64,000 bases of DNA, taken from the NCBI GenBank assembly GCA_049976425.1, contig JBMFIG010000004.1, positions 1-64,000 on the forward strand, read 5' to 3'. Shown here piece after piece: positions 33,887 through 60,519 of the stretch. Every line of letters starts with the position of its first letter. Positions within the stretch are counted from its first letter, which is position 1. The DNA is from Thermoproteus sp. Lineage in GTDB: Archaea > Thermoproteota > Thermoprotei > Thermoproteales > Thermoproteaceae. Position numbers and translations under genes: made by a program. Below the pieces are notes generated by a model that saw nothing but the letters and a program-made list of their open reading frames with translations, ran no database searches and had not been told where the DNA came from.

Positions 33887-35031
33887 CTATAAAAATACGG
33901 GAACTCCTCTGAACTCCTCCACAAAGGCCTTGATCGCCTTTTCGTCCACGGGCCTCTTCCTTGCGGCGTAGTCCTTGACGCGCCTCAAGATATAGTCGAC
34001 GAGCTCTGGGCTGGGCTCCAGCCCCATCTGCTTCAAGGCCCACTCGACGGAGTGCCTCCCCGAGTGCTTCCCCAGCACTATCCTCCTCCTGTTCCCCACG
34101 GCCTCGGGCATCATGGGCTCGTAGGTGAAGGGGTTGTTGAGGACGCCGTGGACGTGGATGCCGGACTCGTGGCTGAAGGCGTTGTCGCCCACGACTGCTT
34201 TGTTGGGCTGTAGCTGGATCCCGAAGAGCCTAGCCACCAGCCGCGACGTCTCGTAGAGCCGCTCCATCCTAAGGCCGACCTCGCGGCCCAGCAGAAAGCG
34301 GGCGGCGGCGGCCACCTCCTCCAGCGCCGCGTTGCCGCCCCTCTCGCCGAACCCGTTGACAGTGACTTGGGCCACCTCGGCGCCCGCCTCTATCGCGGCG
34401 ATGGTGTTGGCCACCGCCATGCCGAAGTCGTCGTGGCAGTGCACGTGCATGGGGACCGGCGGGAGCTCGGCCTTGAGGTGCTCCACCAGATACCTCATCC
34501 TGCTGGGCGTCATCACGCCGACGGTGTCGGGCACGTTTATCTCGTCGGCGCCTGCCTCTATCGCCGTTCTGAACGCCTCGACGAGGAAGCCCAAATCGCT
34601 CCTGGTGGCGTCCTCGGCGCTGAAGAGAACCCTAACCCCTCTGGACTTGGCGTACTCCACAGACTCAGCGATCCTCCGCAACACCTCGTCCCGCGTCATC
34701 CTCAGCTTGTACTTCATGTGTATATCGCTCGTCGCTATGAAGACGTGGACCATGTCCACATCGGCGTCGACGGCGGCGTCTATGTCGGCCTTGTTGGCCC
34801 GCGCCAGGCTGGCCACCTCTGAATACGCCGCGTCCCGCGCTATTCTCCTCACCGCCTCGGCCTCCTCGGGCGACACGGCCGCGAAGCCGGCCTCTATATA
34901 GTCCACCTTTAGTTCGTCCAACGCCATGCCTATCTGGACCTTCTCTTCGACGGTCAGAGAGATGCCGGGCATCTGTTCGCCGTCTCTGAGGGTGGTGTCG
35001 AAGAACCTCACCCGGTGAGCCCCGAATCCAT
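33887..35031 (-). CDS. leuA: 2-isopropylmalate synthase without C-terminal regulatory domain; predicted -1 frameshift near the start
   Basis: [22 protein letters not shown] and HESGIH motifs; ATG 35031 opens ATG GAT TCG GGG CTC ACC GGG TGA, enzyme in the -1 frame (in-frame GTG at 35011). Confidence 0.88.
35008..35031 (-). promoter_or_regulatory. Putative Leu-sensing frameshift cassette (TCG GGG CTC)
   Basis: ATG about 25 nt after TTTTATATA; G-GGG followed by a Leu codon. Confidence 0.75.
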
Positions 35032-35117
35032 ATAGCCCAGAAGCGATCTATATAAAAGGTTTTCGCCCTATATAATAGTTCACATCCGTGCTTATAAATA
35101 GAAGTCGGGTAGGCGTC

Positions 35118-48502: not shown

Positions 48503-48766
48503 TCATCGCCTCTCCCTCAACGCCACGGCCATCGCGGGCGCAGTCTGTAGCTTGCCTATCTCGAGGACCTCCGGCAGTTTGTCCAGCTTGGCCACCAGCC
48601 AGTTTATCTCGTCGGCCGGGCCCTCCACGTCCATAACTATGTGGTACGTCGAGTCCCTCGCCTCTATCTCCATGCGCCTCACGAACACCTTCGCCCTCCT
48701 CACTATGCTGACGACCCTCCCGACGTAGTCCATCGAGGAGGGTATCCTTATGCTAATGGCGCTCAT
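48503..48766 (-). CDS. ilvH: Acetolactate synthase small (ACT) subunit
   Basis: ACT-like fold, KLDKLPEV; lies between ilvB and ilvC. Confidence 0.75.
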   Translation of the reverse strand: MSAISIRIPSSMDYVGRVVSIVRRAKVFVRRMEIEARDSTYHIVMDVEGPADEINWLVAKLDKLPEVLEIGKLQTAPAMAVALRERR

Positions 48767-50527
48767 ACCTCAACGACACGTCCTCCATCCCCTCGGGCAG
48801 AATTGCTTGGGTTAGCCAATCGCCGGGCTTCACCCAAGGCAACACGATGTCCTTGTCCTCGTCTATGGTCACGTCTATCACTATAGGCTCGTTGTTCCTC
48901 ACAGCCCACGACACGGCCCTCTCCAGCTCCTCGTAGGTCGACGGCTTGACGCCCTCTATCCCGTAGGCCTCCGCTATCTTCAAGAAGTCGGGGTTCCTCG
49001 CGAACCTCACGGCGATCTGCCTATTGCCGTACATGTAGACCTGCCACTGCTTGACCAGCTGTAAGGACGCGTTGTCGAATATCACCTCGACAAAGGGCAG
49101 ATCGTACTCCCTCACCAGCGCGAGGTTGTTGAAGGTCATCTGGAACGACCCGTCGCCGTCTATACACACGACGGGCCTAGAGCGGTCGGCGAGCTTGGCG
49201 CCGAGAGCCGCAGGTATGCCGAAGCCCATCGTGCCCAGGCCGGCCGACGTTATGAAGGTCCCCGGCTCGTACACCTCCCACCAGATCTCCGACCACATCT
49301 GGTGTCCCCCCACGCCCGTCACGGTGACGGCGTTCGGCGGCGTGGCCCTCCTCACCGCCTTTAGCACCTTCCAGGGCGCGAAGTACTTGAACTTGCCGGC
49401 GGCCTTCTCCATGGCCTCTTCGTACCTCCTCCTGATCTCGTAAAGCCAGGCGAGGAACTTGGGGCTCCTCGCGGCGGCCGACGGCATTAGGTCCAGCATC
49501 TCCCTAAGAGCCTCCTTGGCGTCCGCTATTATGCCGACGGTGGGCTTCACGTTCTTCCCCACCTCGCTTCGGTCGATATCTATATGGATCAGCTTGACCT
49601 CGCCCGACCTAACCATCTCCTGGAGCTCCTTGAACCTCCCCCAAGTCCTGTCGCTGAACCTGGTCCCCACGGCCACCACCACGTCGGCGTTTGCCAAAGC
49701 CGCGTCCGCCTCGGCCCTCCCGTGCATCCCGGCCGGCCCCATATACAGCGGGTGGTTGTGGGGGATGGCGGCCTTCCCGGGCAAGGTCGACACGATGGGC
49801 GCATTGAGCCTCTCGGCGAGCTCCAGCACCTCCTTGGTGGCGCCCGACCACAACACTCCGCCTCCCGCCAGCACCACCGGCCTCTCCGCCTCCAAGATCA
49901 TCTTGACGGCCTTCGCCACGTCCTCCTCCCTGGGCTTGGGAGGTATGAACTTTGCCGCGTTTATCTGTATCTTGGCCTCGCCCCTATACTCCATCAGCTG
50001 GAGATCCCTCGGCAGATCCACCAAGGTCGGTCCGGGCCTCCCCAGCATCGAGATCTCGTAGGCGATCTTGACGGCGGCCGTGGCCTCCTCCGGCCTCTTC
50101 ACCTGGTACACCCACTTGGTTATAGGCGTCGCCACCCCCAATATGTCGGTCTCCTGGAACCCATCCCTCCCGAACACCCACGTGGCTACCTGCCCCGTTA
50201 TCGCCGCGACGGGCACCGAGTCCATGTAGGCGTCGGTCAAGCCAGTCACCAAGTTCGTGGCGCCGGGGCCGCTCGTAGCGGCCACCACGGCGGGCCTCCC
50301 CGCTACTCTGGCGTAGCCCTCGGCTGCGTGCACGGCGCCCTGCTCGTGGCGGAACATGACCACCTCTATGTCGTCTACGAAATACGCCGCGTCGAATAGG
50401 GCCATTATAGAGCCGCCCGTTATTCCGAGGATGTGCCTTACCTTGAGCTCCCTAAGCGTGTCGATTATTCTGTCGACGACTCTATTGGGGCGATCCCCTC
50501 GAGCCCCGAAGCGACCCCCGAATCCAT
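48753..50527 (-). CDS. ilvB: Acetolactate synthase large subunit; predicted -1 frameshift near the start
   Basis: [19 protein letters not shown] and GDGSF motifs; ATG 50527 opens a 20-codon ORF and the enzyme is in the -1 frame. Confidence 0.93.
50465..50527 (-). promoter_or_regulatory. Putative Val/Leu/Ile-sensing frameshift cassette (TCG GGG GTC; TCG GGG CTC; GAG GGG ATC)
   Basis: Three tandem G-GGG sites, each followed by a branched-chain amino acid codon. Confidence 0.8.
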
Positions 50528-50630
50528 ACGGCAACTATTTAACCTATATTTAAAGATTGTCTTCCTACATAAAAGGCGGAGGAGGCGCCGTACGAGCGGA
50601 ATGCTTAAAAGCTATATAGATACCTGCGCC

Positions 50631-51119
50631 ATGGAGATAAGAGGTCGGGCACTGGTCTACGGCGATAAGATAGACACCGATATAATCATACCGGCCCGCT
50701 ATCTGGTATACACCGACCCCAAGATCTTGGGCGAACACGCCATGGAGCCTCTGGACCCCGACTTCCCCAAGAAGGCCAAAGGCGCCATACTGGTGGCCGG
50801 CAGGGCCTTCGGGATGGGCAGCAGCCGCGAGCAGGCGGCGACGGCCCTCAAGGGCGCCGGCGTCTTAGCCGTCGTGGCCGAGTCCTTCGCCCGCATATTC
50901 TTCCGCAACGCCGTCAACGTAGGCCTTCCCGTCCTTCAAGCCCCCGCCAGGAGCAGAGTGAGAGAGGGCGACGAGCTCCTCGTGAGGCTGGACGCGGGCG
51001 AGGTGGTGAACCTCACCACTGGCGAGGTCATCAAGGGGAAGCCGCTCTCCGGCTTGGTCCTCGACATAATAAAAGCGGGCGGCCTCGTGGAGTACCTAAA
51101 GGCCAGGCCCCGTATATAG
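50631..51119 (+). CDS. leuD: 3-isopropylmalate dehydratase/homoaconitase small subunit
   Basis: [16 protein letters not shown] and SFARIFFRN motifs. Confidence 0.93.
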
Positions 51120-51168
51120 AGCGAATATAGTCGGCGCTAGGCTTAAATATCCCGCGGCCTCTGCCGCC

Positions 51169-51189
51169 ATGCGTTCGGGGAAAACGTAA
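51169..51189 (+). promoter_or_regulatory. Putative Lys-sensing frameshift cassette (TCG GGG AAA)
   Basis: ATG 26 nt after TTAAATAT; no in-frame ATG/GTG/TTG before the catalytic DSTLREGEQ. Confidence 0.8.
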
Positions 51190-52562
51190 AGATCCTCGAC
51201 TCGACGCTGAGGGAAGGCGAGCAGACCCCCGGCGTCGTCTTCTCCGAAGATTGGAGGATTAGGATCGCCAAGGCCCTCTCAGATGCCGGCGTCCACATGA
51301 TAGAGGTGGGCGATCCCAACGTGGCGCCCGACATAAGGTCGGCCATAGCGAAGATAGTGGCCATGAAGAGAGACGGCGAGATAGCCGGCGAGATCGTGGC
51401 CCACAGCAGATCGGTCAAGGCAGATATAGAGAACGCCGCGTCGCTCGAGCCCGACAGGGTGGCTATATTCTACGGCGTGAGCGACATACACTTGAAGCAC
51501 AAGCACAGGAAGTCGAGGGAGGAGGCCCTGTCCATAATTGCGGAGCACGTGGAGTTCGCGAGGAGCCACGGAGTGCGCGTGAGGTTCACTGCCGAGGACG
51601 CCACGCGGGCCGACCCCGACTACTTAATACAGGTGGTCAAGACGGCGAGGGATGCGGGAGCCGACAGGGTGAGCATCGCCGACACCGTGGGTATCTTGAC
51701 GCCCGAGAAGGCGCGGCGGCTGTTCGCCGAGGTCAAGGAGGCCGTGCCCGACGTGGGGCTCGACATACACGCCCACAACGACCTCGGCATGGCGGTGGCC
51801 AACTCCTTGGCGGCCGTCGAGGGGGGAGCCGACGTGGTCCACACGACGGTGAACGGCCTCGGCGAGAGGGCAGGGATAACGCCGCTCCAGACGTTCGCCG
51901 CGGCGTACTACTACCACAGGGGGGTGAAGCTGATAGATCTGACTAAGTTGCCCTACCTGGCCTCCTTGGTGGAGGCGGCCAGCGGCATAGCGCAGATGCC
52001 CACGTTCCCCGTGACCGGCGACAACGCCTTCACGCACAAGGCCGGGGTCCACCAGGCCGGCGTGTTGGCGAGCCCCGAGACCTACGAGCCGTTCCCTCCC
52101 GAGGTGGTGGGCCGCACGAGGGACTTCTCGTTGGACAAATACAGCGGGAGGAAGGCCGTCGCCCACAGGCTCGAGAGGCTCGGCGTCAAGGTCGACGAGG
52201 AGGTCTTGGGGAAGCTCGTGGAGGAGCTGAAGTCCACCAACGCGCGGAGGCTACGCGACGAGGATCTCCTCGAGATGTTGGAGAAGATAACCGGGATGAG
52301 GTACAGGGCGCAGGTCAACAAGCACATAGAGGCGTACGTCTGGGTGAAAGTCGACGAGAACGTCTACACGACGTCGGTGGCCAGGAGGATCATGGCGATA
52401 AGGGGCGTGACCGGCGTCGGCGAGGTGACGGGCGAGTTCGACATAGTGGCCAAGATATCGGCCGAGAACGCCGAGGAGCTGAACAGGATAATCGAGGAGG
52501 TGAGGGCCGTCAAGGGCGTCAAGTCGACGCTCACCAATATAGTCCTGAAACAGCTTTCATAA
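51169..52562 (+). CDS. Homocitrate synthase with C-terminal RAM/AsnC domain; predicted -1 frameshift near the start
   Basis: ILDSTLREGEQ (upstream of the ORF-track start), HAHNDLG, GERAG and HKAGVH motifs; ATG CGT TCG GGG AAA ACG TAA, enzyme in the -1 frame. Confidence 0.88.
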
Positions 52563-52582: not shown

Positions 52583-53257
52583 GTGCCCCTGGTTTCTTGG
52601 GACGAGGTTACGCCGGAGGAGCTCAAGCGTAGATATAGGGGAGGGCCTCTGCTGATACTGACCCACTGCACCAAGACCAAGAACGTCGAGTGGCGCGCCG
52701 TCGCTGACGCGTTGGCGTCCGCCGGGCTCCCCACGCCCGGCATGGATCTAGAGAGGGAGGAGCTCTATAGATCCGCCTTGAGGGATTTCGTCAAGCCCGC
52801 GGCTGAAATGTATGGGGGCTCCTTCAAGAGGGTCAGGGAAATCGCCGAGGCGGTCGCCAGATGCCTCCCCGTCGACCTCTATATACTGAGCGCGAGATAC
52901 GGCTTGATAAGGGCCGACGAGATCGTGGTGCCCTACGAAGCCACGCTGAACGGACTGAGCGCGGCTGAGCTGGAGCGGTGGGCCGAGGCCAGAGGCGTCT
53001 GGGACAAGGCGGTCGAGCTTCTGGAAAAGGGGTACGGGATGGCCGTGGCCTTCCTCCCCGGCAATTATGCCAGAGCCCTCGGGCCGGCTCTAGGCAAGAT
53101 GCTGGCCTCGGAGAACGCCCTTCTGTTGATCCCCCAGAGGCTGGCAGGACGTAGCCCCAGAGCGCTTGTGGTGAAGAACAGAGGGATTTTCAGCAGATAC
53201 GGCGATCTGTCCAACGCCAGACGCCTTCTAGAGAAAGCCCTCTGCGATCAATATTAA
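52583..53257 (+). CDS. Hypothetical protein (YaaA/DUF6884-like)
   Basis: CTKTK, AAEMYGG and ILSARYGLI…PYEATL motifs. Confidence 0.65.
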   Translation: MPLVSWDEVTPEELKRRYRGGPLLILTHCTKTKNVEWRAVADALASAGLPTPGMDLEREELYRSALRDFVKPAAEMYGGSFKRVREIAEAVARCLPVDLYILSARYGLIRADEIVVPYEATLNGLSAAELERWAEARGVWDKAVELLEKGYGMAVAFLPGNYARALGPALGKMLASENALLLIPQRLAGRSPRALVVKNRGIFSRYGDLSNARRLLEKALCDQY

Positions 53258-53276: not shown

Positions 53277-54257
53277 ATGAAGCTCGCGGTCATCCCAGGC
53301 GACGGCATAGGGCCCGAGGTGGTGTCGGCCGCGATGAGGGTCGTCGAGGCCGCGGCTAGGAGGTTCTCCATAGACATAGAGGCCAAATACGTCGAGGCGG
53401 GAGACGCGGCGTTGAGGAAGTACGGCAGAGCCATGCCCGACGACGCCTGGCGCGTCGTGGACTCGGCCGACGCCGTCCTCAAAGGCCCCGTCGGCGAGAT
53501 CGCATACGACGTCACCTCGGCTATAAGGATGAAGTACGTCCTCTACGCCAACATAAGGCCGGCCAAAAGCCTTCCGGGGGTGCCCTCGGTGAAGCCCATA
53601 GACTGCGTCTTCATTAGAGAGAACGTCGAGGACGTATACGTGGGGGCCGAGTACAAGGTCGGCGACGTGGCCATCGCGCTCAAGGTCATCACGGGGCAGG
53701 GCACCAGGAGAGTCGCCAGGATGGCCAGACGCTACGCGGAGATGAGGAGGAGGAAGGTCACCATAGTCACCAAGTCCAACGTGTTGAGGGTGGTGGACGC
53801 CTTCTTCAGAGATGTGGCGAAGGAGGAGCTCAAGGGGCTTGAGGTCGAGGAGATGTACGTGGACGCGGCTGCCATGGAGCTCGTGAGGAACCCCGCCCGC
53901 TTCGACGTGGTGCTCACGACCAACCAATACGGCGATATACTCACCGACCTCGCGGCGCAGGTGGCCGGAAGCCTCGGGCTGGCGCCGTCGGCAAATATAG
54001 GGGACTCCAAGGCCATGTTCGAGCCGGTCCACGGAGCCGCGTTCGACATAGCCGGCAAGGGCATAGCGAATCCCGTGGCGACCATACTCTCGACGGCTTT
54101 GATGTTCGAGTGGATGGGGCGCAACGACGCGGCGGCGGCCGTGAGGAGGGCTGTGGAGGAGGCTCTGAGGCGCGGCGTCGCTACGCCGGACGTGGGAGGC
54201 CGCTCCACCACCGAGGAGGTGGGCAAATATATAGCATCCCTCGTCGAAAATATATAA
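53277..54257 (+). CDS. leuB: Isopropylmalate/homoisocitrate dehydrogenase
   Basis: PGDGIGPEV, RENVE, KSNV, YGDILTD and EPVHGAAFDIAG motifs. Confidence 0.9.
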   Translation: MKLAVIPGDGIGPEVVSAAMRVVEAAARRFSIDIEAKYVEAGDAALRKYGRAMPDDAWRVVDSADAVLKGPVGEIAYDVTSAIRMKYVLYANIRPAKSLPGVPSVKPIDCVFIRENVEDVYVGAEYKVGDVAIALKVITGQGTRRVARMARRYAEMRRRKVTIVTKSNVLRVVDAFFRDVAKEELKGLEVEEMYVDAAAMELVRNPARFDVVLTTNQYGDILTDLAAQVAGSLGLAPSANIGDSKAMFEPVHGAAFDIAGKGIANPVATILSTALMFEWMGRNDAAAAVRRAVEEALRRGVATPDVGGRSTTEEVGKYIASLVENI

Positions 54258-57946: not shown

Positions 57947-58726
57947 CTACCCGACCACGTGGGTCCCCGCGCCGTTGAGGGCAACATCTATGGGGGCCTC
58001 CACCAAGCCGCTGGATATTATCACCTCGATCCCGGCCTTGGCGGCCTCTGCGGCCATCAACAGCTTCCTCTTCATGCCGCCTTTGACCTCCTCGTTCTGG
58101 ACAAGCCGCTCCGCCTCTTCGGCCGTGAGGCGCGGCACCACCCTCCCGCCGATATAGAGGCCCTCGACGTCGCTGAGGAGCACCAGCTTCTCGGCGCCTG
58201 TCCTTTTGGCCACGTCGAACGCCAGCTGGTCGCCGTCTATGTTCAGGAGCTCGCCCCTCTCCGACACGGCGATGGGGGCCAGCACCCTCAACGGCGGCGG
58301 CGCCAGCTTGGAGGCGTCTATCTCTGTTATACGGCCCACGTAGCCCCCGTCCACGACCCTCTGCCTCCCCCTCTCGTCGACCACCAGCACCTTCTCCTTG
58401 CGCTTGGCCCTCACCACGCCTAGATCGGCCCCGGTTAGGCCCAGCGCCGGCACGCCCATGCCGTGTAGCGAGGCGACTATGGACTTGTTTATCCAGCTCA
58501 TGGCCATGACGAAGGCCTTTAAGGTCTCCCAGTCCGTGTAGCGGCTTACGAGCCCGCCGGGGTGCGTGAGGAATTTCGGCTCTATCCCCATCCTCTTCAT
58601 CAACTCGTTGACAAGACACCCCCCGCCGTGGACCACGACCGCCTTGTCGGCGTATTTGGGCAGGTTGCGGATCGCCATCGAGGCGTCCTTGCAGATAACG
58701 GATCCTCCTATCTTGATCACGATCAT
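57947..58726 (-). CDS. lysZ: [LysW]-aminoadipate/glutamate kinase
   Basis: KIGGS, VHGGG, SRYTD, NIDGD and GGMKRK motifs. Confidence 0.93.
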
Positions 58727-59778
58727 ATGGGGTGGGGAGGTATGTACCTAAGCCCTTGATCCTCGGGGAACCCCGCCGCTATGTTGAACGCCTGCACGGC
58801 CTGCCCGGCGGCCCCGCGCACCAAGTTGTCTATGGCCGAGAACGCGACGACCCTCCTCATCCTGGGATCTATCTCGAAGCCCACGTCGACTATGTTGGTG
58901 CCCAGTACATATTTTATATTTGGATAGCGCGCTAGGCCCAGCTTGTCCTTCACGATCCTCACGAACTTCGAGTCGCCGTACATGGCCCTATACGCCTTCC
59001 ACAACGTCGGCTCGTCCACGTCGCGTTCGGTGAACACGTGCGCCGTGGAGAGTATGCCCCTCACGGCGTCGACGGCGTGCGGCGTGTAGGCCACCCTCAC
59101 CTCCCTCCCCGCAAGCCGCGAGAGCTCCTGCTCCACCTCCGCCGCGTGTCTGTGGTGAACCGGCTCGTAGGGCCTTATGACGTAGGTGCGGTGGCTGTGC
59201 ATGTCGAGGACCGACCCCTCGGCCCCGGCGCCTGAGGAGCCCATCTTCACGTCGATTACCGGCGGGAGGGGGCCTAGAAGCCCGTATTTGGCCAGAGGCG
59301 CGAGCGCCATTATGGATGCAGTGGCGGTGCACCCGGGAGACGCTATGAGCTTGGCGCCGGGTAGCTCGTCCTTGTGCAGTTCGGGGAGGCCGTAAACCGC
59401 CTTCTTCAAGAGATCGGGGTAGGGATGCGGCTGCGGCCACTTATACCACTCCACGTAGGCGTTGGGATCCTTCAGCCTGAAGTCGGCCGACAGGTCGACC
59501 ACCATGAGGCCGTGCTCGTACAGCTGGGGGACCCACTTGACCGACTCGCCGTGGGGAAGCGCCAGGAAGACCACGTCGGCCTTCAACGCGGCGTCGATGC
59601 TGGGCTCCACGAACTTGAGGTTTGTGAATCCCCTGAGGTTTGGGTGGATCCTGTAGACGTACTCCCCCTTGAACTTCCTAGAGGTGGCGCAGACTATCTC
59701 GACCCCTCCGTGCTGTAGCAAGATGCGCAACAGCTCTCCGCCGGTGAATCCGGAGGCCCCCACTACGCAAGCCTTCAT
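58723..59778 (-). CDS. lysY: [LysW]-aminoadipate/glutamate phosphate reductase
   Basis: [24 protein letters not shown] and [11 protein letters not shown] motifs. Confidence 0.94.
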
Positions 59779-60460
59779 GCCTCCTCCAGCCCGACCTCGG
59801 CCAGGAGCCTCGCCCTAGCCTCGTCCAGCTCCGGCACGGGGTCTACGTCTATCACGCGCTCCCCGTCGTCGTAGACGCCGAGCGTGATCTCAGCGTACTT
59901 GAGGCCCAGCGACCTCAACACCTCGCCCGCTATCCCGTCGATCCCGGGCACGGCGAACACCTTCCTGACCTCTCTGGGCTTGGGCATGGCGATGCTACCC
60001 TTGGCCAGGGGGTTCCTCATGTAGTTGCGGTGCTCCACGACGCTTTTGGCCCCCTCTACGCTAGTCACCGACACGTCTAGGCCCAGGCGCCAGACGGTCG
60101 CGAGGAGCCACGGCGGCTTGAAGTCCACCTTCTCCACGGCCTCCTCGTCGGAGAACACGAAGAAGTGGGGGCCGTATTTGGGCAACCAGTACAGCCTATT
60201 GAGCGCGTTGTATATGGCGTATGAGGGGTTTATCGATCTGCGGAACAGGGAGGCGTACACAGCGCCGAGGTACTGGTTCCTCGTCCTTATGAAGACGGTG
60301 AAGTCCCCGCCCTCGACATGTCCCTGGGATATATCGAGGATATCGGCATGCGCGCCGCGGGCCGATAGGAGCTTGGCGAGAAGCCTCTCGCCTAGCTCGG
60401 GCTTCTCGGATAGTATGAGTATCCTCGCCCCGTTGGCCCCGCTTTCCCCGCAAGGTCCAT
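59775..60460 (-). CDS. Divergent LysX/ArgX (RimK ATP-grasp)-like protein; predicted -1 frameshift near the start
   Basis: Frame stays open upstream of the ORF-track GTG (ILILSEKPELGERLL…FIRT…SINP); KSVVEHR…NPL and IDVDPVPE resemble LysX; ATG 60460 is out of frame. Confidence 0.7.
60392..60460 (-). promoter_or_regulatory. Putative Lys/Pro/Arg-sensing frameshift cassette (GCG GGG AAA GCG GGG CCA ACG GGG CGA)
   Basis: ATG about 27 nt after TTTATATA; three tandem NCG GGG sites. Confidence 0.8.
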
Positions 60461-60519
60461 ATAGGCTGGGCTGGGGACTATATATAAACTTAACGGGCTA
60501 TTACGCAAAAACCGATTTC

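Follow-up and report, generated by a model that had tools for sequence, protein, structure and literature searches.

How is the homocitrate synthase (HCS) gene of this Thermoproteus genome translated, when the frame that carries its presumed catalytic motif offers no start codon of the usual kind? The gene lies in the window, by which we mean the whole stretch of 64,000 nucleotides analysed here, taken from a draft assembly of 96 contigs. The stretch KILDSTLREGEQ (K at 51189-51191) sits in the -1 frame relative to an ATG at 51169, and this enzyme frame is open only from 51147. No ATG, GTG or TTG occurs in it between 51147 and the motif, an interval that reads ISRGLCRHAFGENV and leaves 14 open codons ahead of the motif. 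The first canonical in-frame start is ATG 51297, and the ORF beginning there (51297..52562, 421 aa) would have lost the motif. A first-pass annotation had described the enzyme frame as closed by a TAA and devoid of a canonical start before the motif, which we confirm. The elements of the locus are as follows.

51142..51149, plus strand: HCS TATA-like box, letters CTTAAATA, kept in alignment A1
51144..51146, plus strand: TAA that shuts the enzyme frame on its upstream side, inside the TATA box
51169..51189, plus strand: HCS leader ORF in the zero frame, ATG CGT TCG GGG AAA ACG TAA
51177..51183, plus strand: shift site G GGG AAA (P site, Gly codon; A site, Lys sensor AAA)
51177..52562, plus strand: HCS ORF, read in the -1 frame, which begins at the GGG that the slip would reach and ends with the stop codon

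The leader thus runs from its ATG (51169-51171) through six codons, MRSGKT, to the TAA at 51187-51189. Counted from the first base of the box, the leader ATG follows the TATA-like sequence by 27 nt, the same spacing as in ordinary genes of this genome, and the ATG is presumed to be the very 5′ end of a leaderless mRNA. Leaderless transcription is described as having first been found in Pyrobaculum aerophilum (PMC6028130).

The protein scores 514.5 bits against NCBIfam TIGR02146 (LysS_fung_arch; cut-off 413.55) and 607.5 bits against NF002085 (cut-off 517), with the HMGL-like barrel PF00682 over residues 1-261, PF22617 (HCS_D2) over 275-353 and a C-terminus that is an Lrp/AsnC-type (RAM) ligand domain. 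The substrate/metal motif LDSTLREGEQ, which we take to be catalytic, is present at the N-terminus. Paralogues in the same genome score as 2-isopropylmalate synthase (IPMS) and citramalate synthase, and together with the equivalog score this suggests that the substrate is 2-oxoglutarate rather than 2-oxoisovalerate or pyruvate.

We compared the locus in 19 family genomes of three genera, whose best database matches are named Thermoproteus and Pyrobaculum. The TATA-like box, the out-of-frame ATG and the heptamer G GGG AAA are kept in all 19 HCS orthologues, the heptamer being invariant (alignment A1, columns G65-A71), and indels on either side of it are all multiples of three. The base ahead of GGG is always G although the codon differs (TCG, CCG, CAG), and the third A of the sensor is constant although the corresponding enzyme-frame residue varies (N/S/R/T), a pattern that suggests constraint on the shift site at the nucleotide level. 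The recurrence of the out-of-frame ATG and of GGGGAAA in 19/19 genomes lies far outside what chance would give. The ORF itself is intact, with 74-99% protein identity to the family orthologues. The first-pass annotation had proposed that a -1 shift at TCG GGG AAA is needed, and the recurrence of the heptamer and of the frame relation in 19/19 orthologues bears this out. It had also anticipated that automated annotation would go wrong here. None of the 30 database N-termini that we inspected begins at the leader ATG; they range from truncated MIEVGD forms to forms beginning within the TATA box, and one entry from Pyrobaculum aerophilum is titled 'with possible unusual start codon'.

We suggest, with a probability of roughly 0.78, that HCS is expressed via a programmed -1 ribosomal frameshift that doubles as a lysine sensor. 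From the architecture, its conservation and the match of codon to pathway described below, we infer a leaderless 5′ end, a slip and a direction of regulation as follows. Transcription would start about 27 nt downstream of the TATA box and give a leaderless mRNA from ATG 51169, on which the ribosome would translate Met-Arg-Ser-Gly and come to hold peptidyl-tRNA-Gly on GGG in the P site, with the Lys codon AAA exposed in the A site. When Lys-tRNA is ample, AAA would be decoded, the stop two codons on would be reached, and no HCS would be made. When charged Lys-tRNA is scarce, the A site would remain empty and the tRNA-Gly could slip one base back, from GGG onto an identical GGG; the new A-site codon GAA would then be decoded and the ribosome would go on in the enzyme frame. 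The predicted HCS N-terminus after the slip is MRSGENVKILDST, and a P-site slip would yield the peptide MRSGENVK. The same device with other sensor codons would serve at least 15 further genes for amino-acid biosynthesis and aminoacyl-tRNA synthetases in this genome, and pathways with more than one end product would have more than one sensor, arranged in tandem.

Scanned without bias for a TATA box with a short ATG frame and an extended frame at -1, the genome gave 24 TATA-associated sites of this layout, 16 of which are amino-acid genes. These 16 have in common a TATA box, an ATG, 0-4 codons, nnG GGG XXX and the enzyme in the -1 frame. Where a single amino acid is defined for the gene, as in 13 cases, the sensor codon specifies the amino acid of the pathway every time (13/13): Lys for HCS and LysX, Leu for IPMS, Val for acetolactate synthase (ALS), Ile for CimA and IleRS, Trp for TrpE, a TrpB-like protein and TrpRS, Phe for PheA, Thr for ThrC, Cys for CysRS and Arg for CarA. 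Sensors for His, Met and Ser, among others, did not turn up in this genome. The product of amino-acid frequencies puts the chance of 13 matches at 3e-20, and none of 1,000,000 label permutations reached 13 matches, the maximum being 10. The Lys sensor, guessed in the first-pass annotation from one gene, is therefore borne out by the genome, and its reading of HCS is supported as one case of a regulon-wide system. The layout is specific to G: with an AT-rich box in place, G_GGG was counted 15 times, A_AAA and C_CCC twice each and T_TTT not at all.

Eight of the 24 sites are not amino-acid genes, having no family, a junk-like composition or short ORFs. The candidates set aside as unsupported are C1+172965 and C5-79723 (no family), C38, C12 and C1-101578 (junk-like composition), and C14+24032 and C19+22851 (short ORFs). 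We also rejected C5+20594, a membrane-like ORF with its own GTG, and C5+31531, a proteasome-like ORF with its own ATG 7 nt downstream.

Further leaders of this kind lie in the window, on the minus strand.

50465..50527, minus strand: ALS leader ORF, ATG at 50527-50525, 20 codons
50519-50513, 50507-50501 and 50498-50492, minus strand: tandem ALS sensors G GGG GTC (Val), G GGG CTC (Leu) and G GGG ATC (Ile)
about 50548-50555, minus strand: ALS TATA-like box
48753..50519, minus strand: acetolactate synthase large subunit ORF, -1 relative to its leader (TIGR00118, 594.6 bits, cut-off 538.35)
35008..35031, minus strand: IPMS leader ORF, ATG GAT TCG GGG CTC ACC GGG TGA
35023-35017, minus strand: IPMS shift site G GGG CTC (Leu)
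about 35049-35057, minus strand: IPMS TATA-like box
33887..35023, minus strand: 2-isopropylmalate synthase ORF, -1 relative to its leader
60392..60460, minus strand: leader ORF of the lysY/lysZ operon, ATG at 60460-60458
60449-60443, 60440-60434 and 60431-60425, minus strand: lysY/lysZ leader sensors G GGG AAA (Lys), G GGG CCA (Pro) and G GGG CGA (Arg)
about 60480-60489, minus strand: TATA-like box of the lysY/lysZ leader
57947..60449, minus strand: lysY/lysZ operon, in the -1 frame of its leader
59775-60449, minus strand: 224-aa protein heading the operon, without a Pfam or NCBIfam family
58723-59778, minus strand: argC/lysY
57947-58726, minus strand: [LysW]-aminoadipate/[LysW]-glutamate kinase gene

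The ALS sensor leader is found in 19/19 family genomes, with Val first in all and all three sensors in 13, and the CTC sensor of IPMS is likewise kept in 19/19. IPMS scores 525.7 bits against NF002085 (cut-off 517) and 512.2 against TIGR02090 (cut-off 484.75). The lysY/lysZ operon (TIGR01850, 407.9 bits; NF010662, 270.9 bits) has overlapping stops and starts; its Lys, Pro and Arg sensors are present in 6/6 genomes, one genus having them as K-P-R and the other as P-K-R.

Across the family we collected 173 leaders with 223 sensors from 13 genes, leaving loci cut at contig ends outside the denominators and dropping two within-family rows as noise (CysRS in one genome of genus g2, GTG GGG TTG; TrpE in one Pyrobaculum genome, GTA). 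Every change of sensor codon in this set is synonymous (ATT/ATC, TTC/TTT, TGT/TGC, GTC/GTT/GTA, CTC/CTT and ACA/ACG). G GGG is present in all 223 sensors, which in part follows from the detection criterion, and it is invariant in the HCS alignment, which was made without that criterion. G GGG AAA precedes LysX in 17/19 family genomes, and the ThrC leader of Pyrobaculum carries Ile-Thr sensors. Multi-sensor leaders thus go with multi-product pathways, as in ALS, the lysY/lysZ operon and Pyrobaculum ThrC. Family members that lack the motif have a canonical in-frame start there instead. Outside the family, motif-like sites at 3/53 loci were judged to be noise, as two of the three start with TTG and not ATG, and the codons match in none of the three. 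Among the 164 leaders with a 7/8 match to the TATA-like 8-mer, 144 have it at -30 to -26, which is also where it peaks ahead of ordinary long ORFs of the genome (238/414). It seems likely to us that Thermoproteus and Pyrobaculum share a regulon built on a modular hungry-codon -1 sensor on leaderless mRNA, which would operate without RNA structure or a protein regulator and in which tandem sensors would act as a logical OR.

The sequence of the shift sites bears on how such a slip could take place. The P-site part, G GGG, fits -1 re-pairing, since an identical codon is available in the new frame, and no stop can arise from a -1 codon whose first base is G. The sensor codons in the A site (AAA, CTC, TGG, ATT, TTC, CGA and others) would be unable to re-pair with GAA, GCT, GTG and so on, and the sites do not follow the X XXY YYZ pattern in which both tRNAs re-pair. 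A conserved shift site lies at the junction of the overlapping frames in HCS (19/19) and in the 173 leaders of the 13 genes. Folding of 45 nt downstream of the sensor in 16 leaders gave no common stem-loop or pseudoknot of the sort that classical -1 frameshift sites have 5-9 nt downstream (mean z = -0.07 against shuffled sequences) and, by the same folding, no excess structure that could form terminator and antiterminator alternatives; the structural gene moreover overlaps the leader. Neither a Shine-Dalgarno-like nor a structural stimulator was found at these leaders. In long ORFs of the genome, in-frame nnG GGG is not depleted (observed/expected 1.06), and 35 of 90 TATA-associated ATG..G GGG sites belong to ordinary genes in which the ATG frame is the long one, from which we conclude that G GGG alone is not very slippery and that its efficiency depends on context. 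Sensor codons are rare in part only: in a crude ORF set AAA, ATT, ACA, CGA and TGT are minor codons, but CTC, GTC, TTC and TAC, also sensors, are used more often than any synonym. ARAGORN predicted 15 tRNA genes without introns and made 42 calls with introns, some of them doubtful; this incomplete set includes tRNA-Gly with CCC and UCC anticodons.

Several other explanations can be weighed against the frameshift. We give next to no probability to an origin of the layout in faulty sequencing or assembly, or in a gene that is decaying into a pseudogene. Errors are common in homopolymer runs and the assembly behind the window is a draft, but the 19 genomes with the same layout include complete single-contig ones, and a separately assembled contig (DNA run X1, possibly from the window's own sample) has the same G4 and A4 run lengths and 0 gaps against the window over 50400-51600. 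The orthologue comparison thus also disposes of the homopolymer error or strain-specific deletion against which the first-pass annotation had cautioned. A slip of RNA polymerase could also restore the frame, as one G added to the G4 run would put the ATG in frame in the RNA, and the run is 6-12 nt away from where transcription is presumed to start. Short RNA-DNA hybrids near the transcription start can slip, in what is known as reiterative transcription. A run of four bases is short for slippage, however, and this explanation accounts neither for the codon-pathway match, nor for the synonymous-only changes, nor for tandem G GGG XXX units in one frame, and we regard it as very unlikely. We give similarly little credence to the possibility that the enzyme frame begins directly at an unusual codon other than ATG, GTG or TTG, with the out-of-frame ATG and the G-run being irrelevant. 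The title of the Pyrobaculum aerophilum entry makes this guess, annotation pipelines assign various non-canonical starts, and the frame is indeed open before the motif; yet no candidate codon is kept, as the enzyme-frame codons ahead of the heptamer vary freely across the 19 orthologues, and the frame of two genomes opens just 9 codons before K. Nor would such a start explain the invariant G GGG, the conserved ATG at the standard TATA distance or the 13 matches.

The leader could also be an independent mini-ORF, with the enzyme made by termination and reinitiation at a start overlapping the leader stop. HCS leaders in the window's genus have a stop that overlaps an enzyme-frame Val codon (GTAA, or GTGA in one genome), and at the CarB locus the -1 frame runs on to a point 19 nt beyond the CarB ATG. 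The IleRS leaders in the window's genus end in GTGA or GTGATG, so that a canonical GTG or ATG overlaps the leader stop; in Pyrobaculum, IleRS has an in-frame ATG 2-3 codons upstream, and ordinary initiation could be enough for this gene in both genera. The need for a shift is also called into question by 61/173 leaders that have some enzyme-frame ATG, GTG or TTG ahead of the shift site. Trp and Cys sensors, for their part, unavoidably make a GTG in the enzyme frame. Against reinitiation, GTA is not a known start codon, and in 3 of 8 Pyrobaculum HCS orthologues the leader frame stops only after LDST, an overrun that excludes reinitiation there, while a canonical start overlapping the leader stop is found in 0/8. 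Leader length varies from 3 to 26 codons, G GGG would have no role, and a ribosome stalled on the sensor would lower expression, which is the wrong sign for biosynthetic genes. We therefore consider reinitiation improbable as the explanation of the layout, and suggest that some synthetase genes may gain basal expression from it.

To our knowledge, archaea have neither T-boxes nor classical attenuators, so that how they match amino-acid synthesis to supply is largely unknown. If the frameshift reading is true, these leaders would be an archaeal counterpart of both, and they would give hungry-codon frameshifting a conserved natural use, in the first natural system with it as a regulatory principle. 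They would report tRNA charging directly in vivo for 11 amino acids and, the sensor being very simple, would be easy to test and reuse, as one codon change could reprogram the specificity. The reading would also explain a long-standing annotation trouble, the many copies of these genes in the databases that are truncated or given a wrong start, and it would give a clue to function for the 224-aa protein heading the lysY/lysZ operon, tying it to the supply of Lys, Pro and Arg.

One mechanistic likeness is to hungry-codon frameshifting in starved E. coli, in which the P-site tRNA is described as slipping when the A-site codon lacks charged tRNA (PMC5009743). That account treats the shift as an error phenomenon of unclear extent under natural conditions, whereas here it appears, from the sequence patterns, to be harnessed, conserved and gene-specific. 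Among archaea, a cellular case described is the -1 frameshift in fucA1 of Sulfolobus solfataricus (PMC8211752), and a likely magnesium chelatase frameshift is mentioned for Methanocaldococcus and Methanococcus (PMC5009743). Like the genes discussed here, fucA1 is an archaeal cellular gene that requires a -1 shift, but it is described as having an A-rich heptamer, rare codons and a putative stem-loop in mid-gene, in particular strains only, with full-length relatives and an unknown purpose (PMC8211752), whereas the sites here are kept from genus to genus and follow an evident logic. Frameshifting at pheL is called 'apparently incidental' in the title of one report (PMC3082878). In the main text of openly accessible papers, we found no published report of amino-acid sensing by frameshift like this.

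In bacterial leader-peptide attenuation (trp, thr, ilv, pheL) the leader likewise contains codons for the end product of the pathway, leaders of multi-product pathways likewise combine several (Thr and Ile in thr; Val, Leu and Ile in ilv), and more enzyme is likewise made when charged tRNA is scarce. Attenuators differ in relying on terminator and antiterminator hairpins, for which there is no counterpart here, and on runs of codons, whereas these leaders use one codon per amino acid and the enzyme ORF overlaps the leader in another frame. The +1 frameshifts of prfB (RF2) and antizyme share with the proposed sensor a slow A-site codon, at which the P-site tRNA can move into the productive frame, a short zero-frame ORF followed by a long shifted ORF, and a full-length yield that reports the supply of a decoding molecule. 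As in prfB, the A-site codon would be decoded by the molecule that the gene product controls, to judge from the codon-pathway matches and the synonymous-only changes. In the leaders described here, by contrast, the sensed codon would be a sense codon read by an aminoacyl-tRNA, the shift would be -1 on G GGG, 2-12 codons in from the 5′ end of an mRNA that is presumably leaderless, and one design would be reused with different codons throughout a regulon.

As the first-pass annotation had described, the enzyme frame of homocitrate synthase (HCS) lies in the -1 frame of a short leader, and our own reading of the sequence agrees. The long ORF with KILDSTLREGEQ is shut upstream by TAA at 51144-51146, and the stretch from 51147 to the motif, ISRGLCRHAFGENV, contains no ATG, GTG or TTG; the earliest canonical in-frame start is the ATG at 51297 (421 aa), with which the catalytic motif would be lost. 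Leaders located in the window include the following, a sensor being the codon that follows G GGG:

51169-51189, plus strand: HCS leader, ATG CGT TCG GGG AAA ACG TAA (MRSGKT), ATG at 51169-51171, stop at 51187-51189
50527 (ATG), minus strand: acetolactate synthase (ALS) leader, ATG GAT TCG GGG GTC GCT TCG GGG CTC GAG GGG ATC
60460, minus strand: leader with Lys, Pro and Arg sensors

The HCS assignment is given by NCBIfam TIGR02146 (514.5 bits, cut-off 413.55), with Pfam matches to an HMGL-like barrel, an HCS_D2 domain and a C-terminal Lrp/AsnC-type ligand domain. By analogy with Sulfolobus, where a RAM-type domain is reportedly linked to lysine feedback, this C-terminal RAM-type domain may exert lysine feedback on the enzyme itself.

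A homopolymer sequencing error or a strain-specific 1-nt deletion, which the first-pass annotation named as fatal to its own reading, is ruled out by the comparison of orthologues that it proposed. The HCS protein was searched against 31 related genomes and the 5′ ends were read on both strands; the layout is common to all 19 genomes of the window's family (nine from the window's genus, eight from a second and two from a third), and the best database matches were named Thermoproteus and Pyrobaculum. In order, it consists of a TATA-like box, about 20 nt, an out-of-frame ATG, 1–3 codons, G GGG AAA and the enzyme in the -1 frame. In the alignment of these 5′ ends GGGGAAA is invariant (19/19), as the proposed shift at TCG GGG AAA would have it, and indels on either side of the heptamer, from the ATG up to it and from it to the LDST motif, are multiples of three without exception. 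As the G before GGG is fixed while the codon that it closes differs (TCG, CCG, CAG), and the third A of AAA is fixed while the enzyme-frame residue begun there differs (N, S, R, T), the constraint acts at the nucleotide level. The sole orthologue from outside the family (59% identity) lacks the heptamer and starts at an ordinary ATG in frame with the enzyme. An independently assembled contig from a DNA run, possibly of the window's own sample, shows no indel at the site. We consider it very likely that HCS requires recoding at G GGG AAA.

Reinitiation or an unusual start codon would not, on the sequences compared, account for HCS. Among the nine genomes of the window's genus the leader stop shares bases with an enzyme-frame Val codon, GTA in eight and GTG in one, and in the second genus three of eight leader frames extend 13–14 codons and end past LDST. 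No conserved enzyme-frame codon was found upstream of the heptamer in the HCS orthologues, and the leader Met was the first residue in none of the 30 database HCS N-termini inspected. One database entry is titled 'with possible unusual start codon'; the starts are MIEVGD (421–427 aa), MFSEEW, MREGEQ, M(I)LDST, MKILDST or inside the TATA box. In the database proteins P0002-P0071, public annotation places the HCS-family start at seven or more sites, and the catalytic motif is missing from many of these annotated proteins. The truncated or confused annotation that had been predicted for this gene is thus found, and the remaining regulon genes probably suffer the same mis-started annotation.

The window's whole assembly was scanned for ATGs preceded by a TATA-like box and followed within six codons by nnG GGG, where the ATG frame is short and the -1 frame long. 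Of 90 TATA-associated ATG..G GGG sites, 24 combine a short ATG frame with a long -1 frame; in 35 it is the ATG frame that is long (ordinary genes), in 6 the +1 frame, and 25 have no long frame. NCBIfam identified amino-acid genes at 16 of the 24; the other eight are ORFs without a family, of junk-like composition, or short. Under stricter criteria G_GGG shows the architecture 15 times, A_AAA and C_CCC twice each and T_TTT never.

Sensor codons in the window's genome and, where given, family genomes with the leader and the codons found there.
HCS: AAA (Lys); 19/19, AAA
LysX (TIGR02144, 321.6 bits): AAA (Lys); 17/19, AAA
Isopropylmalate synthase: CTC (Leu); 19/19, CTC
ALS (TIGR00118, 594.6 bits): GTC (Val); 19/19, Val first in all (GTC/GTT/GTA)
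Citramalate synthase (TIGR00977, 618 bits): ATC (Ile); 16/16, ATC or ATT
Isoleucyl-tRNA synthetase (IleRS; TIGR00392, 834 bits): ATT (Ile); 16/18, ATT or ATC
Anthranilate synthase I (TrpE): TGG (Trp); 3/6, TGG
TrpB-like enzyme: TGG (Trp)
Tryptophanyl-tRNA synthetase: TGG (Trp); 11/12, TGG
Prephenate dehydratase (PheA): TTC (Phe); 17/19, TTC (11), TTT (6)
Threonine synthase (ThrC): ACA (Thr); 17/19, ACA or ACG
Cysteinyl-tRNA synthetase: TGT (Cys); 7/11, TGT (5), TGC (2)
Carbamoyl-phosphate synthase small subunit (CarA): CGA (Arg); 6/6, CGA
Transketolase N-terminal subunit: TAC (Tyr)
3-Dehydroquinate dehydratase fused to chorismate mutase: TAC (Tyr)
224-aa protein without a family, operon head: AAA, CCA, CGA (Lys, Pro, Arg); 6/6, AAA, CCA, CGA

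The agreement of the Lys sensor with HCS, to which the first-pass annotation had pointed, extends to all 13 genes with one defined amino acid: in each the sensor codon is that of the pathway amino acid. The product of amino-acid frequencies for this match is 3e-20, and none of 1,000,000 label permutations reached 13 matches (maximum 10). Across the family there are 173 leaders (172 ATG, 1 GTG) with 223 sensors; differences in sensor codon among orthologues are all synonymous in the leader frame, and a canonical in-frame start takes the motif's place in family members that lack it. In the two other families of the order, motif-like matches occur at 3 of 53 loci, which we regard as noise: the codons match the pathway at none of the three, and two start with TTG rather than ATG.

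Tandem sensors, as predicted from their codons, track pathway logic. In the ALS leader the Val, Leu and Ile sensors share one frame and each leads into the enzyme frame. Threonine synthase has a lone Thr sensor in all nine genomes of the window's genus and Ile then Thr in six of eight in the second. The amino acids of these two kinds of leader are also those combined in the E. coli thr and ilv leader peptides. The leader at 60460 heads an operon of the 224-aa protein (59775-60449, minus strand), argC/lysY (TIGR01850, 407.9 bits) and a [LysW]-aminoadipate/[LysW]-glutamate kinase gene (NF010662, 270.9 bits), in which the stop of one gene overlaps the start of the next. Lysine and ornithine/arginine are both made by the LysW route, and ornithine is a possible proline source. 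In the second genus the sensors of the 224-aa gene are ordered Pro, Lys, Arg (3/3 genomes), and between genera its leaders keep solely the codon identity read in the leader frame. Its place at the head of the lysY/lysZ operon, after sensors for Lys, Pro and Arg, makes the 224-aa protein a probable component of the LysW-dependent lysine/ornithine route.

The 224-aa protein matches no Pfam or NCBIfam family, and Atlas hints only weakly at a RimK-like ATP-grasp domain at its N-terminus (score 0.91); in Pyrobaculum its gene is divergent and adjoins threonine synthase. Near HCS the following genes were also noted:

50631-51119, plus strand: LeuD/HacB-type small dehydratase subunit (TIGR02087, 199.9 bits), with an ordinary in-frame ATG, its own TATA box and no sensor, though it lies between the ALS and HCS leaders
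52583-53257, plus strand: 224-aa ORF without an NCBIfam family, between HCS and the next gene
53277-54257: isopropylmalate/homoisocitrate dehydrogenase-type gene (TIGR02088, 401.2 bits, slightly below the cut-off of 409.8)

A TATA-like 8-mer starts at -30 to -26 in 144 of the 164 leaders with a 7/8 match, and at the same position in 238 of 414 ordinary long ORFs of the window's genome. As the spacing matches that of ordinary genes, and a passage of PMC6028130 places the first finding of leaderless transcription in Pyrobaculum aerophilum, we infer that the leader mRNAs begin at the leader ATG, with no alternative ribosome entry point. Tandem slippage is impossible for most sensors: the -1 codon, made of G and the first two sensor bases, offers their tRNAs no pairing. 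No downstream structure common to the leaders was found (16 leaders, mean z = -0.07), and the feature common to all sensors is G GGG. From these points, the best-supported model is a slip in the P site, gated by an empty A site. On G GGG the peptidyl-tRNA-Gly would re-pair perfectly one base back, and the new -1 A-site codon begins with G and so is never a stop. Plentiful charged tRNA would give in-frame reading and early termination, and scarce charged tRNA a -1 slip and enzyme, a sign of control that suits biosynthetic enzymes and synthetases; several sensors in tandem would give OR logic. We put the probability that the device is a charged-tRNA sensor working in this way at roughly three in four.

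Several observations weigh against this charged-tRNA sensor or narrow it. nnG GGG is not depleted in ORFs (observed/expected 1.06) and 35 ordinary genes carry G GGG near the start, so the slip should occur rarely except at a starved A site, or else depend on closeness to the 5′ end. Several sensors are the commonest codon for their amino acid. In 61 of the 173 leaders the enzyme frame has some canonical start before the shift site, and one is always nearby at the three synthetase genes, so frameshifting is not strictly required there: Trp and Cys sensors generate an enzyme-frame GTG, and in IleRS a GTG or ATG overlaps the leader stop in one genus and an in-frame ATG lies upstream in the other. 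Such starts may provide basal expression of essential genes. In second-genus IleRS the codon before Gly is NAT in seven of eight genomes and CGT in one, which preserves the out-of-frame ATG or GTG, and NAT is kept whatever the residue. At these loci (L055-L062) an in-frame ATG stands 2–3 codons upstream of a conserved out-of-frame (A/G)TG GGG AT(T/C), and the two overlapping starts may serve basal plus regulated expression.

TCG precedes GGG at 110 of the 223 sensors, and among 194 unique site contexts 64% have C at -2; this bias goes further than a final G would require and may come from an effect of the E site or of context on slippage. Upstream of CarB on one genome contig (G000 C34, locus L042, ~391-490) stands a leader with an Arg sensor, ATG TCG GCG GGG CGA ATA TAG (MSAGRI*), whose -1 frame of 29 codons ends 19 nt past the CarB ATG, itself in the third frame; it may represent a coupling variant or a relic, or have arisen by chance.

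Passages of the 2016 frameshifting review describe a likely frameshift in the magnesium chelatase of two methanogen genera and call the extent of hungry-codon frameshifting under natural conditions unclear; Pyrobaculum, Thermoproteus and leaderless were not found in its first 300,000 characters (PMC5009743). The cellular -1 case described in a part of the 2021 archaeal recoding review is the strain-specific fucA1, and homocitrate, isopropylmalate, Pyrobaculum and Thermoproteus were not found in its text (PMC8211752). A passage of PMC3082878 terms frameshifting at E. coli pheL 'apparently incidental'. We found no report of a regulon-wide G GGG sensor system in the full-text literature searched. 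As judged from sequence, the interpretation first offered for HCS alone is supported and much widened. In their logic the G GGG sensor leaders come closest to prfB and antizyme, from which they differ in being regulon-wide, modular and archaeal.
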